Below, in pieces: positions 12,882 to 49,468 of a stretch of 64,000 bases of DNA. The stretch's first letter is position 1, and every line of letters starts with the position of its first letter. The position numbers and the translations under genes were made by a program. Source of the DNA: a virus (Duplodnaviria > Caudoviricetes); IMG/VR virus record IMGVR_UViG_3300020050_010385, positions 1 to 64,000 of that record; one strand, written 5' to 3'. Under the pieces are notes generated by a model. It saw only the letters and a list, made by a program, of their open reading frames with translations. It searched no databases and was not told where the DNA came from.

Positions 12882-13862
12882 TTATAGGTCCTCAAGTTCT
12901 TTGAAGACTACTTTTCTTTTTGCCAAAGAATTAAACTCATCTCTTCCACACACGGGCAGATACAAGCACTTGCCGTATTTGCCAATACACTCATAAGTAT
13001 TTTTATAGTGCGGAGCCAAGCCTTTCCACCAATTCCACATATCCTGAAGAAGAGAGGTTAACTCGGCTTTGAAGGCCAACAACTCTTTCTCAGATGTTGG
13101 GCTTTCCATGCGCATGAAGTAAAACTCTGGCCGCTTCTCAACGTCTTTCTTTACGCGCTTGGCATATTGAACTACTGTTTCACTGGTATTCATTCTTAGG
13201 GCTGTTCGTCTAATAACATTATAAAGACAGCCTCTAGGCACTGGACTTGAGGTGCCTCCCCAAGTTTCTAAAAGATAAAGCATAACTTGAGTTTCAAAGC
13301 TTAAAGTTTCCGATATTCCTCCTTCATCGATCATAGCTTTAAATTTAGTTTCAAAAAGCCATGTCCCTTTTGTCCCTTGAAAAGTTCCGTCTTTTTTTCC
13401 TCTTAGCGGAATGCTAACTTTTTTACCATCTGCCCCGACTATCGGTAACCACATAACCCACTTCTCTTCCAGAGAAAGCCATTTCTTTTTAGTAAAGTCG
13501 TCTCTCCAATAGTCAAAGTAAAGCGGAAGCACAACTTCCATGACTGCCAAGGCCTTGTCCACCATTACCCTAGCTTTTGTATCAAGCCGCACATGCTCTT
13601 GATTCCACATCTTCTCAACTATATCAGTGTACTTTCTAATACTTTTTTCAGACGGAGGGGAGGTAAGTTTTCCGGCTTTTACGTCCAAATAGGCATACTC
13701 TAAAACCGCATGGCCAACGTTCCCGTCAACTAACGCTTCTTTAGCATACCTACTTTCCCATCCCTGGAGGTAAAATCGGGCCTTTTGACGGCAAGACAGC
13801 CACATAGAAATAAGGCTTTGCGTCACGCCATCGCGTTCCATCTCGTAAAAAGTCTTGCTCAT
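12882..13862 (-). CDS. PD-(D/E)XK (Cas4/AddB-like) exonuclease
   Basis: C..G...H..LE, GKKD, ETK, terminal Cys cluster. Confidence 0.8.
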   Translation of the reverse strand: MSKTFYEMERDGVTQSLISMWLSCRQKARFYLQGWESRYAKEALVDGNVGHAVLEYAYLDVKAGKLTSPPSEKSIRKYTDIVEKMWNQEHVRLDTKARVMVDKALAVMEVVLPLYFDYWRDDFTKKKWLSLEEKWVMWLPIVGADGKKVSIPLRGKKDGTFQGTKGTWLFETKFKAMIDEGGISETLSFETQVMLYLLETWGGTSSPVPRGCLYNVIRRTALRMNTSETVVQYAKRVKKDVEKRPEFYFMRMESPTSEKELLAFKAELTSLLQDMWNWWKGLAPHYKNTYECIGKYGKCLYLPVCGRDEFNSLAKRKVVFKELEDL

Positions 13863-14037
13863 TTCAAAGCCTTTTGTGCGGCGGCTTTTTTAGCCTGCCC
13901 TTTACGAGAAAGCTTATTTGCACAAACTATACAAAGATTTGTTTTTTTCATAAAACGATTTCTTAATGTTTTGCAATTTATGCAAATTAAAGGCATATCA
14001 TATTTCTCAGAAACTTCTTTATTCCATTTGCTTTTGC

Positions 14038-15114
14038 TCATTTGGCTTCTCCAATTTGTAATGCTGCTATTGCCGGTAATTCGCCTGCTGCTATTGCTTC
14101 AATTTCGCCATGCATACTAGCTAGATTAAACGTTACCATAGAAATTTGTTTTTCGCGCTTTGCCCAGACTTTCTCCATAGCTCTTCTTTCAGAGTCTAAA
14201 TCAGCCTTCATAGTTCTATACGATTCAACAATCCCTTCAATCCTTCCTTTAAACTCAAGACCAGTCATATATTCGTAAACTAAAACTGCCTTGTCTTTCT
14301 TTCCAGCCTGTAAATACTTTTCTTTAGCCGCTCGCATAAGGCCTTGACGAATAGCATGAGCCAAAGGAATACAATTTCCTGGAGAAGAAACCCAGACACT
14401 TTCCACTTCACCAAATTCCTCTAAACCTTTAGGAAGGGTCTCAGTTGCAATCAAACAAACGTCGGCTTTAGCATTTCGAGCATCGGCTTTGATCTTAGTA
14501 ATCCAGCCGTCTGACCAAGCTTTAGTCCTCTTTATTTCCCAAAGCATTCTTCCGCATTCTGTGCCGGCCTTATTCTTAAAAATATGCAAAATATCCCCAC
14601 CTTTGATTCCAGGGGATACAGGGTCAATCACGTCAAAAGGAAACTGAATCCTAAGCATTTCCTCAAGCTCAGCCTCAAACGTTTCGCCTTGGGCCTGTTG
14701 AGAGCCTTGCTCCATGCGTCTTTTAAGTTCCTCAACTTGTGCCAGTGTGTCTGCTAACTTTTTGTCTTTCTCAGAATCTTTAGCGCGATGATCCTCAACT
14801 ATTCTGGCAGAAACTCTGGCCTCTATGCTTGCCTTCTCTTGTTCGAGCTTACGTTGAACCTCTAGGTCTATGTCCTTGGCTTTTTGCTCAAGTTCGGTCT
14901 TTTGCTTACGCAATGACAATTCGTTAGCATTAGCTTTGTCAAGCTTTTCCTGAAGAGAAATAACGCTTTCGTTAGCCTCCTTAAGGATTTTATTTTTTTC
15001 AACAGCTAATCTTTTGGCCAGTTCTTTTTCAACACCCGCCTCCATTTTTTTAGCCATGGCCTTGTCAAGCTCAAACTCTTCACCGCAACTTGGACATTTA
15101 ATTAAATCAGACAT
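14038..15114 (-). CDS. DUF2130-family coiled-coil protein
   Basis: IKCPSC, GSQQAQGE..E..LE, EIKRTKAWSDGWI.K.K.D. Confidence 0.85.
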   Translation of the reverse strand: MSDLIKCPSCGEEFELDKAMAKKMEAGVEKELAKRLAVEKNKILKEANESVISLQEKLDKANANELSLRKQKTELEQKAKDIDLEVQRKLEQEKASIEARVSARIVEDHRAKDSEKDKKLADTLAQVEELKRRMEQGSQQAQGETFEAELEEMLRIQFPFDVIDPVSPGIKGGDILHIFKNKAGTECGRMLWEIKRTKAWSDGWITKIKADARNAKADVCLIATETLPKGLEEFGEVESVWVSSPGNCIPLAHAIRQGLMRAAKEKYLQAGKKDKAVLVYEYMTGLEFKGRIEGIVESYRTMKADLDSERRAMEKVWAKREKQISMVTFNLASMHGEIEAIAAGELPAIAALQIGEAK

Positions 15115-15133
15115 TTTTTTTCTCCAGAAATTT

Positions 15134-15288
15134 ACAGGGTTGACAGGATTTTTACCTGCTGGCGATTTTGGTGATGCTCAAGTATAGGTTCGGTATCCTA
15201 CGACCTACTGCTTTATGTGACTTTTTGCATTCTCCGGCAGTTCGCTTAATCTGCCTATATTTTGCGGGTTCATCCCGCCACAACCCTG
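15134..15288 (-). ncRNA. tRNA-like element with ~100-nt central insert
   Basis: 8-bp terminal stem CAGGGTTG/CAACCCTG, D-like arm GCGGG/CCCGC, T-like arm GCAGG-TAAAAAT-CCTGT. Confidence 0.55.
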
Positions 15289-15294
15289 CTTATT

Positions 15295-16056
15295 TTACTT
15301 TTTATTTTTAGACGCCTTTTTCTTGGCACTGTAAGCCTTAAGCTTTGCCTTAGTCTCTTCGCTCATCGTAACCTTGGGCTTAGCCGGACGATCACTTTTT
15401 GCACGCACTGCCTTAACCTTGCCACTTGGCACATTTTTCTGGCCTTGAAGCTTACCGGCATTGTACATGCAGCGGTAAGATGCCACGTTCTTAAGCGTCG
15501 GCAACGACCCAGTTTTTCCCTCAATTGCTTTAGCAATCTGCTCATCAGTTAACGCTGACACAGCTTGCCCTGCAAAGATTTCAAGATAAAATGCACTTAC
15601 GCCTTGTCGCACTTCTTTTTTGTTTGCTTTCACTTTTTTGTTTCCCATTTTCACTTCTCCTTGTTTTTTACTTTCCATTATAATCCCCATAAACTTGCTC
15701 ATTCTTTGAGTCATTCTATCAACTCTAAATTCTCTGATTGCTTGCAAGTTTTGAAGAACTGATTTTGGCATTGGAATTCTTGCCTCTATATAAGCGCTAG
15801 CTTGCAGCTCGTACCCTATGCGGGTCTGCAATAACTCGGCGTCAACCTCGGGAATTTTTATATCACAAACTGTTGGCCACCATTTTCTAATTACTGTATA
15901 CTGTAAAGACCAATTGTCTGCGCTTGCCCATTCTTTTTGAAACTTGTATAATAGTGAAAAATCAAGATTGCTTGAAAAGCTCAAGCTGGGTTTGATTTCT
16001 GGAATAAACTCTGCAATCTTTTTTATCGGCTTTTTTCTCTTCAGAAACAATGGCAT
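15295..16056 (-). CDS. Basic DNA-binding protein (HTH-like, NUMOD3-like MSEETKAK); possible internal start 15648
   Basis: Lys-rich C-terminal half; RBS before MGNKK. Confidence 0.5.
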   Translation of the reverse strand: MPLFLKRKKPIKKIAEFIPEIKPSLSFSSNLDFSLLYKFQKEWASADNWSLQYTVIRKWWPTVCDIKIPEVDAELLQTRIGYELQASAYIEARIPMPKSVLQNLQAIREFRVDRMTQRMSKFMGIIMESKKQGEVKMGNKKVKANKKEVRQGVSAFYLEIFAGQAVSALTDEQIAKAIEGKTGSLPTLKNVASYRCMYNAGKLQGQKNVPSGKVKAVRAKSDRPAKPKVTMSEETKAKLKAYSAKKKASKNKK

Positions 16057-16380
16057 GGCCTTTCCCCTTTTCTATAACTTTAAACTCTTTAAACAAACAT
16101 TTGGGATTTTTATTCAGGCAGCGCGTGAAGACACATTTAGCCCCATCACTTTTTCGAGTGTAGAGCCTTTGTGTAATAGATTTTTCTCTGCAGGTATAAC
16201 AATAGTGAAGCATCTCGCACGCCCTTTGTCGATCCGGTCTGGAGAAGTCTGGGCGTGCGACCCGTACCATTTCTGGCTGACTTCGTCCAGCCGGATCATT
16301 TATTAATCCGCACTAGATTTAATTGAATAAATGTATATTAGACTTGTATTTGTAAGTTGTATACCAGTAATTAAACTATT

Positions 16381-16632
16381 TTACCCGCGACTTTTTTTCT
16401 TAAGTATTGCTCTTTTAGCTGCATATTCCCGATCAGTTGACATTCCTTCAAGCCCAAAACGGAAAGCCACAACTTTATCATATATCGACTGCAACCACTG
16501 ATGCTGCGCGGGAGTAAGAGTTTTTTCTTTTGCCAGAATTCCTGCGCACTCCACAATAAACTGAAATTCTTTATGAGTAAAATCTGCTTTATGCCAATCC
16601 ATTAAGACAGTCATAAGGTCAACGGCTTTCAT
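16381..16632 (-). CDS. Hypothetical protein
   Basis: ORF coupled to deaminase stop; LTPAQ..WL..IY motif. Confidence 0.5.
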   Translation of the reverse strand: MKAVDLMTVLMDWHKADFTHKEFQFIVECAGILAKEKTLTPAQHQWLQSIYDKVVAFRFGLEGMSTDREYAAKRAILKKKSRG

Positions 16633-17066
16633 ACAGTTTCTCCCCAAAGAGTTACTGGAATTTCGGCATGCTGAAGTACATTCCATCCACCGTCAATATT
16701 TAATTCCTTAACCCTAACTTCTTTTACTCCGACGTTAATCAAAGCCCTGGCACAATCTACACACGGCGCATAGCTGCAATAAAGAATTGAGTCTCTAAGA
16801 GCAGTCCCGCGTTTAGCGGCCTGACAAATTGCATTAATCTCAGCATGTATATTTCTTGTGCAAGGAGAGCCACAAGTCCCTGGTTGATACCCCATAGAGC
16901 CGGTTTTAGCATCACAATGGTTAAATCCCCTTGGCGGAGCGTTATAACCAGTTGCCAGGATCTCGTAGTCGGTATTTACAAACACGGCCCCCACTTTCCG
17001 CTTGAAGCAATCCGACTTAGACTTTACAACGTCGGCTATAGCGCAGAGATATTCATGCTTTGTCAT
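16629..17066 (-). CDS. dCMP deaminase
   Basis: GYN, HAE.NA, PC..C. Confidence 0.9.
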   Translation of the reverse strand: MTKHEYLCAIADVVKSKSDCFKRKVGAVFVNTDYEILATGYNAPPRGFNHCDAKTGSMGYQPGTCGSPCTRNIHAEINAICQAAKRGTALRDSILYCSYAPCVDCARALINVGVKEVRVKELNIDGGWNVLQHAEIPVTLWGETV

Positions 17067-21687: not shown

Positions 21688-21775
21688 TAGTTTCTCCTTT
21701 CATTGAAAAACATTATATAGAGAAGAAAGTCTTTTGTACATACTTTTTATTAACGTTTATACTAAATAGTATGAT

Positions 21776-31315: not shown

Positions 31316-31351
31316 GGGGAGGGTAGTTTTCTAGCGACTTCTACCCTCTCC
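31316..31351 (+). terminator. Hairpin downstream of MCP
   Basis: GGGGAGGGTAG...CTACCCTCTCC; weak U-tract. Confidence 0.4.
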
Positions 31352-49382: not shown

Positions 49383-49468
49383 GATACCCCTGCCGTAATT
49401 GGTAGGGCGGTTGGTGAAAAAACGGAAGAATAGCCTTCGACCTTGAGCAAGTTGGAGGCTATTTCTTT

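Follow-up and report, generated by a model that had tools for sequence, protein, structure and literature searches.

On the minus strand of a 95-kb virus genome recorded in IMG/VR and rated complete, a structured element lies between two genes of a module concerned with nucleotide metabolism and replication/recombination. The window referred to throughout is the stretch of DNA that was analysed, namely the first 64 kb (64,000 nucleotides) of that genome. The module runs, on the minus strand, from thymidylate synthase and dCMP deaminase through a 253-aa protein, the element, a DUF2130 gene, a Sak4-like AAA_24 gene and DUF669 to a family A DNA polymerase (PolA). The element itself occupies 15134–15288 (15134–15289 when a terminal G•U pair of its closing stem is counted). 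It starts 6 nt past the stop codon (15297–15295) of the gene for the 253-aa protein (15295–16056, minus strand, taken from the ORF list) and ends 20 nt before the ATG (15114) of the DUF2130 gene (14038–15114, minus strand); the first-pass annotation had said that it fills the intergenic gap almost exactly, and so it does. The remaining nucleotides, 15115–15133, hold a short stretch rich in U and then the GGAG that serves the DUF2130 gene as its ribosome-binding site; they are near-identical in the two closest relatives, L017 and L018. The element occurs once in the 95-kb genome, whose other intergenic gaps carry plain hairpins. G+C-rich hairpins of 11–13 bp lacking a clear U tract follow plus-strand (structural) genes at 31316–31351, 49425–49468 and genome positions 78020–78053; at 49.4 kb, a long hairpin between convergent genes, flanked by runs of A and T, looks like a bidirectional terminator. 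Among GenBank phages, no DNA similar to window positions 13000–17000 was found.

The product of the downstream gene matches Pfam PF09903 (E = 3.9e-59), and the DUF2130 family is listed in the PD-(D/E)XK nuclease superfamily (PMC3424549). The upstream 253-aa protein, for which 19 homologues were found and aligned, has no Pfam or PHROG match and no sequence match in the PDB. Alignment and an AlphaFold model (pLDDT 76) show a helical domain at the N-terminus, one of winged-helix/HTH-like type at the C-terminus, and a tail rich in Lys. A Foldseek search of the model against PDB and BFVD returned nothing below E = 0.27, and the C-terminal domain gave only weak, generic structural matches of winged-helix type (Z 5–6; VIA). 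It is a putative DNA-binding protein. An unannotated small ORF, 83 aa long as read here (15962–16213, minus strand), extends in a different frame beyond the ATG of the 253-aa gene. Its zinc-ribbon-like CxxC...C...C N-terminus is kept in relatives, it has no Pfam match, and it overlaps the poorly conserved, low-confidence first ~30 codons of the 253-aa gene. The true start of the latter may lie further downstream than the annotated ATG.

About 1.1 kb upstream of the element, a promoter-like site (16335–16363, minus strand) fits the pattern T[GA]TACA-N17-TAnnAT and precedes a leader, right after which the small Cys-rich ORF begins; the same pattern recurs at 21712–21740 (minus strand), at the head of the leftward operon. 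In L009, L010, L011, L012, L018 and L021, an equivalent site precedes the leader or the small ORF. The site at 16363–16335 thus suggests that the 253-aa gene begins its own transcription unit, placing the element at that gene's 3′ end. Inside the gap, neither a sigma-70 scan nor the phage's own promoter-like pattern revealed a promoter.

Architecture of the element

Every pairing named in the first-pass annotation was found in the minus-strand sequence at 15134–15288, and the minimum free energy (MFE) structure given by RNAfold is exactly the architecture described there, including the closing stem and the D-like, T-like and GGCAG/CTGCC hairpins. The closing stem, P1, which had been called acceptor-like, pairs 15288–15281 with 15142–15135 (8 bp) and is extended by a G•U pair between 15289 and 15134. 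Both of its strands (5′ strand, 15281–15289; 3′ strand, 15134–15142) are supported by the sequence, by RNAfold and by a shuffle test, and the 5′ strand additionally by compensatory changes relative to L017 and L018. Two nucleotides past the P1 5′ strand stands the D-like hairpin, P2 (15278–15264; 5 bp, with a 5-nt loop AUGAA), followed by the middle hairpin GGCAG/CTGCC (15255–15236; 5 bp and a 10-nt loop in the RNAfold structure). An extra interior of ~76 nt (15160–15235), inside which RNAfold predicts a long imperfect hairpin, then leads to the T-like hairpin, P3 (15159–15143; 5 bp including one G•U pair, with a 7-nt loop UAAAAAU), which directly adjoins the 3′ strand of P1. The element had been portrayed as a tRNA shape whose anticodon region is replaced by additional hairpins; the additional ~76 nt do exist, but they sit between the middle and T-like hairpins. 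P1 closes a 138-nt multibranched loop, and the continuous P1+P3 helix measures 13–14 bp. Directly 3′ of the closing stem the sequence reads UAAAUUUCUGGAG (UAAAUUU), with no discriminator followed by CCA.

The MFE structure has a predicted energy of −47.5 kcal/mol (z = −3.85), a stability that RNAfold reached in 2 of 200 dinucleotide shuffles. An enclosing stem of P1 quality appeared in 0.3% of dinucleotide shuffles of the window gap, and, judged on the window sequence alone, the position of the D-like hairpin has p = 0.006 and that of the T-like hairpin p = 0.08. On the complementary strand the predicted fold is about as good (z = −3.7), so folding alone does not fix which strand is the functional one. 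A 43-aa ORF lies inside the element; it has no similarity to the small ORFs found at the same place in L009 and L014, and none of these matches Pfam, on which grounds a coding remnant was rejected. A MITE or other mobile inverted-repeat element was likewise set aside, the element being single-copy and its flanks, AATAAG and TAAATT, not forming a duplication. GGCGATYT occurs 5 times in the window against 3.4 expected, which is no enrichment of this motif.

The slot in related phages

Relatives were reached as syntenic contigs, designated by L numbers, through homologues of both flanking proteins. Searches of IMG/VR by four routes turned up only one syntenic relative, a degenerate DNA pattern of the conserved 3′ flank yielded no further ones, and a scan of genome contigs returned only distant cellular DUF2130 genes. 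The slot between the 253-aa and DUF2130 genes turned out to be the most variable place of the module. In ten lineages it is structured, with spacers of 52 to 230 nt and structures of 28–156 nt whose sequences are almost unalignable. In L009 a small ORF (55 aa; L009:3359–3526) follows a 96-nt structured spacer; in L014–16 a 67-aa ORF (L014:3293–3496) fills the slot and there is no structured spacer; L013 has an ERCC4-type nuclease gene there (L013:3304–3756), and L026 probably does likewise (L026:1028–1492). Since L013, L014–16 and L026 have an extra ORF in place of the structure, the element is dispensable. Judging by these contents, the module boundary at the slot is an insertion hot spot. 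Genes for Vsr, Endonuclease VII, Pyr_excise and MT-A70 also appear and disappear near the slot in relatives.

Behind this variability, a few features recur. In each of the ten lineages a stem encloses most of the gap. With 300 dinucleotide shuffles per lineage, this stem has p = 0.003–0.033 in 8 of the 10 (Fisher 7e-9, uncorrected for shared ancestry). The stem is also kept in position: 12–21 nt separate its 3′ end from the DUF2130 start codon in nine lineages and 30 nt in L002, and its 5′ end lies 3–17 nt from the upstream stop codon. A hairpin stands 0–4 nt from the P1 3′ strand in every lineage except L011 (9/10; combined p = 1.4e-4), with no spacing in the window, L017 and L018 and 1–4 nt in the six others. 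Its loop ranges from 3 to 12 nt and has no sequence common to the lineages, and the P1+P3 stack, 13–14 bp in the window, measures 9, 11, 13, 13, 16, 17, 17 and 25 bp in relatives. Within ~10 nt after the stem, 3–7 U residues occur in 9 of 10 lineages. A P2-type hairpin, by contrast with the closing stem and the 3′ hairpin, stands out in no lineage other than the window and L018 (combined p for the family, 0.06), and both P2 and P3 are weak in most lineages when taken singly. L012, L019, L021–24, L002, L010 and L009 form three-way junctions, while L011, with a gap of 52 nt, has a plain hairpin.

The strand can be approached through G•U pairs. P1 contains internal G•U pairs in the sense orientation in L021, L018 and L002, which would be A–C mismatches on the other strand and mismatches in DNA. 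This is mild evidence for a coding-strand RNA rather than an antisense RNA or a DNA cruciform. For the element as a whole, MFE values are mixed: the sense strand is the more stable in 7 of 10 lineages (in three of these by <1 kcal/mol) and the antisense strand in three, the window included.

Compensatory change in the closest lineages

The most direct comparison is offered by the three closest lineages, namely the window, L017 (DUF2130 89% identical) and L018 (74%). They share a 3′ flank consisting of CCCTG, a T or C, AAATTT and the ribosome-binding site, and this common flank fixes the register of the P1 3′ strand, so that the pairs of P1 are directly comparable. At pair 6 the window has T-A, L017 G-C and L018 C-G, and at pair 7 they have T-A, A-T and C-G, respectively, such that two adjacent pairs have each changed three ways with pairing retained, while pairs 2–5 and 8 are identical in all three. 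P3 shows one compensatory A-T to G-C exchange and one G•U to G-C change among the same lineages. In P2, the window and L018 have hairpins of the same size (5 bp, 5-nt loop) in which four of the five pairs differ. L017 and L018 also have a middle hairpin at a place that, on our reading, matches that of the window. All three lineages therefore follow a cloverleaf-like order: closing stem, a hairpin 1–2 nt on, a middle hairpin, and a hairpin adjoining the 3′ strand. The register of the 5′ strand is our own reading, which MAFFT fails to recover. A MAFFT alignment of the slot (L012, L019, L021, L002) mis-registers two subgroups, for which reason no covariance model of the slot was made and the helix comparison uses our own flank-anchored register. 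As far as comparison of sequences can tell, the structure is real, and its stems are kept under selection on pairing. The first-pass annotation had proposed conservation in homologues as a check; the closing stem does covary and the 3′ hairpin does recur, but P2 is not general and the interior is not conserved.

A hypervariable interior

Whereas the stems are kept, what they enclose is not. The interior ranges from 8 to 138 nt across lineages, a 17-fold span, and is 68 nt long in L017 and 54 nt in L018. The window element is twice the length of those of its nearest relatives (~80 nt longer), the extra sequence lying between the middle hairpin and the 3′ hairpin, and this extra interior is, on the present comparison, a lineage-specific expansion. 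In L017 the whole element folds no better than its shuffles (z −0.6 to −0.9), and only the closing stem is robust in the centroid structure. A further case comes from five wastewater/activated-sludge sequencing runs that were compared as contigs, which carry no information on ends or strand. Three runs are labelled RNA-Seq but are probably DNA, and no run containing the stretch is recorded as RNA. The contigs give no cover over the element save for one contig of run X1, in which 15151 is joined to 15277 by 45 other letters that replace 125 nt (15152–15276). The flanks of this contig are near-identical to the window, with 3 differences in 108 nt and 10 differences in 99 nt. Stems that are kept while loops and interior are free to change form the pattern expected if only the stems matter.

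A proposed structured junction between two expression units

We infer that the element acts as an RNA on the sense strand and has a role there. Our preferred reading, held tentatively and at somewhat short of an even chance, is that of a cis-acting intercistronic mRNA structure, serving as a leaky non-canonical terminator and/or a barrier to decay or processing. The element would be part of a polycistronic early/middle mRNA, at the junction of two expression units. The upstream one, short and regulated, would comprise the promoter (16363–16335), the leader, the small Cys-rich ORF and the 253-aa gene; the downstream one would hold the recombination/replication genes DUF2130, Sak4-like AAA_24, DUF669 and PolA. 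The G+C-rich P1 would clamp the whole spacer just 5′ of the DUF2130 ribosome-binding site, with P3 stacked upon it, and selection would hold P1 and P3 while the interior drifts, expands and gets replaced. Such a barrier could block exonucleases and RNase E and/or terminate leakily, whereby the 3′ end of the upstream message would be protected and the downstream message would begin with a structure, setting the expression ratio of the two units. The separate promoter-like site 1.1 kb upstream, together with the lack of one in the gap, supports placing the element at a junction of units, and the covarying stems, fixed distances, free interior, dispensability and U residues fit a cis-acting message structure.

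Intercistronic stem-loops are familiar from phage and bacterial operons, where they act as leaky intrinsic terminators, as REP-type 3′ stabilisers, or as RNase III sites between the genes of phage T7. Like these, the element separates two cistrons read in the same direction and stops a short way 5′ of the ribosome-binding site of the second. A few U come after its G+C-rich stem, its pairing is kept though its sequence is not, and some relatives do without it. It departs from them in that its stem closes a 138-nt multibranched interior and is followed by only a weak U run, and in that an additional, recurrent hairpin stacks against the 3′ side of that stem. A classical T7-type RNase III site presents about two turns (around 20 bp) of near-continuous helix, for which the 13–14 bp of the window and the 11 bp of L017 are too short, although the 25 bp of L012 and the 17–20 bp of L019 would be compatible. 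Several observations count against a barrier or terminator. The U run is short and interrupted, and a terminator scan limited to loops of 3–8 nt leaves the element unflagged. L013, L014–16 and L026 manage without the structure, and strand energies across the ten lineages do not point one way. The four-helix, cloverleaf-like plan of the three closest lineages is also more elaborate than a simple barrier needs.

Alternative readings

Conceivably, the inverted repeats have no RNA function and are by-products or mediators of DNA cassette exchange at a recombination/insertion hot spot, or form a site that works as DNA, for instance an origin or a cruciform bound by protein. The variability of the slot, with its different occupants (hairpin only in L011, the 55-aa ORF of L009, the 67-aa ORF of L014–16, the ERCC4-type nuclease of L013), speaks for such an account, as does the interior swapped in the near-identical X1 contig; both strands fold about equally, and the adjoining gene encodes the putative DNA-binding protein. 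We nonetheless regard it as unlikely. The element is single-copy, with no target-site duplication and no transposase, and shows neither iterons nor an adjacent A+T-rich unwinding stretch. The distance between stem and start codon is maintained in 9 of 10 lineages, the stem undergoes compensatory changes in a conserved register, and the sense-strand internal G•U pairs would be mismatches in a DNA cruciform.

A second reading takes the tRNA resemblance at face value: P1 and P3 would imitate an acceptor/T-arm minihelix, as in the t-elements of plant mitochondria, and host RNase P or RNase Z would cut the message there, possibly freeing an RNA of ~155 nt. The likeness to tRNAs and t-elements is real in outline. 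The closing stem has 7–9 bp, a hairpin follows its 5′ strand after 1–2 nt, and a hairpin with a 7-nt loop directly adjoins its 3′ strand; in the window, L017 and L018, P3 borders P1 directly (1–4 nt away in six others), and the same three lineages have the cloverleaf-like order of helices. Like the tRNA-like signals, the element is intergenic and lies among early phage genes. The arms and spacing noted in the first-pass annotation hold up as topology in these lineages, but they lack the loop signatures and a fixed 12-bp stack. A tRNA top half would require an acceptor/T stack of ~12 bp, against 9–25 bp across the lineages. The P3 loop reads UAAAAAU against UUCRANY, and none of the P3 loops, of 3–12 nt, carries a UUCRA-type sequence. 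The P2 loop, AUGAA, has no GG, and the stem has 8–9 bp against the 7 bp of an acceptor. CCA follows P1 in none of the lineages, nor CCG the stem of the window, and distant relatives of the element are three-way junctions or plain hairpins. The genome has one copy of the element, and its other gaps hold plain hairpins.

Detectors agree with this. The annotation had favoured a tRNA-like RNA or an intron-containing tRNA, and had suggested ARAGORN with introns allowed and a covariance-model search as checks. By default, ARAGORN calls no tRNA or tmRNA in the window element, in eight related loci or in the whole 95-kb genome, which has no tRNA genes at all, and with the intron option at the default threshold it finds nothing in any slot or element. 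Rfam 15 gives no match at the gathering score, and over 15050–15350 none, whether to tRNA, tmRNA or YrlA, even at E ≤ 10, by which a Y RNA/YrlA was also rejected. Together with the missing loop signatures and CCA, these results run against both tRNA and tRNA mimic. We rate cleavage at a top-half mimic as quite unlikely, and give only a slim chance to the more specific form of this idea, in which a degenerate minihelix mimic recruits host tRNA-processing enzymes and its fast-evolving cargo may come free as a stable ~155-nt RNA, which would make the junction a further case of tRNA punctuation in phages. A partial parallel exists in phage T4, whose stable RNAs species 1 and 2 (rnaC, rnaD), of 120–140 nt and of unknown function, are likewise larger than a tRNA and smaller than tmRNA. 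The present element would share with them that it is a phage-encoded structured RNA of such intermediate size. Whereas T4 rnaC and rnaD belong to a cluster of tRNA genes and undergo processing alongside the tRNAs, the genome studied here is devoid of tRNA genes and its element lies inside a protein-coding operon.

The stem might instead serve translation, with P1 looping out the spacer as a clamp that keeps the stop codon near the DUF2130 ribosome-binding site (~10 nt past P1), so that terminating ribosomes could re-initiate whatever the length of the sequence between. In favour of such coupling, the stem is the only conserved part, ending 3–17 nt from the stop codon and 12–21 nt (L002, 30) from the start codon while the interior varies 17-fold. 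A ribosome on the stop codon, however, would unwind the 5′ strand of P1, and the 52-nt gap of L011 needs no clamp yet still has a strong hairpin. Coupling of this kind is also without experimental precedent in this phage group, and we judge it markedly improbable.

A chance structure in a non-functional spacer is very unlikely. The eye readily picks out short hairpins, P2 and P3 are each weak on their own in most lineages, and the whole L017 element is no more stable than its shuffles; against this stand the significance of the enclosing stem in 8 of 10 lineages (Fisher 7e-9), the two P1 pairs that covary three ways in an anchored register, and the z of −3.85 in the window. Finally, a true tRNA gene interrupted by a long intron can practically be dismissed, as can a degenerate tRNA or a gene of tmRNA type: when its threshold is lowered to 80% and introns of up to 200 nt are allowed, ARAGORN places a tRNA-Val(aac) with a 64-nt intron exactly over the element, but this call cannot be told from noise, the relaxed setting making 187 calls in 95 kb and matching 41 of 1000 gap shuffles, default ARAGORN and Rfam are negative as described, and no conserved anticodon arm or cloverleaf was found across homologues, the interiors of the closest relatives differing and that of the X1 contig being swapped. 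By every detector and signature applied here, the tRNA-shaped fold is not a tRNA.

A leader RNA in the same unit

The unit that the element would close on our intercistronic reading also begins with a structured RNA. Between the promoter-like site and the small Cys-rich ORF, 1 kb upstream of the element, lies a leader of ~115 nt (16321–16208, minus strand). Counterparts are found at L017:2736–2849, L009:2231–2348, L018:859–977, L021:78–190, L013:2229–2345, L014:2236–2360, L012:1920–2042, L002:1733–1866 and, truncated, L019:1–91, whereas L010 and L011 lack it. The leader consists of a long closing stem, a hairpin with a covarying stem that bears a GNRA-type tetraloop (GAAA, GCAA or GAGA) in 7 of 9 lineages, and a third segment, the 3′ half of which is paired to the purine-rich ribosome-binding stretch immediately 5′ of the start codon. 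Its long-range helix is recovered by RNAalifold in nine lineages, with 94% of cells paired and four of eight pairs changed on both sides. For the whole tested structure of 12 pairs, 0 of 500 shuffles reach the observed covariation, which collapses when the partner is shifted 1–3 columns along. From the nine sequences a covariance model was made, and it finds the truncated L019 copy, which had been left out of building, with E = 3e-9. The same model detects no other copy in the window or the loci and matches no slot element, so the slot element is no second leader. Some likeness between the two closing stems does exist in L012, where the 5′ strand in the slot (2971–2985) resembles that in the leader (1946–1964; ATC..CGGCGGC), but it is not seen in the window. 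No Rfam family matches the leader. It resembles a translational control element, one that would act by occluding the ribosome-binding site, and it could be a new cis-regulator, for example a riboswitch-like element or a protein-binding translational operator. Although a by-product, it is the more valuable finding.

Implications

The element offers a caution that a tRNA-shaped outline does not make a tRNA. Its comparative pattern, with covarying stems, fixed position and a hypervariable interior, provides a clean small example of selection on pairing alone. If the intercistronic reading holds, the element would be an ordinary RNA barrier between cistrons in an unusual branched, rapidly expanding form, and would mark the edge of a short, separately promoted, leader-controlled unit within the replication module of a poorly known group of phages from wastewater and sediment.
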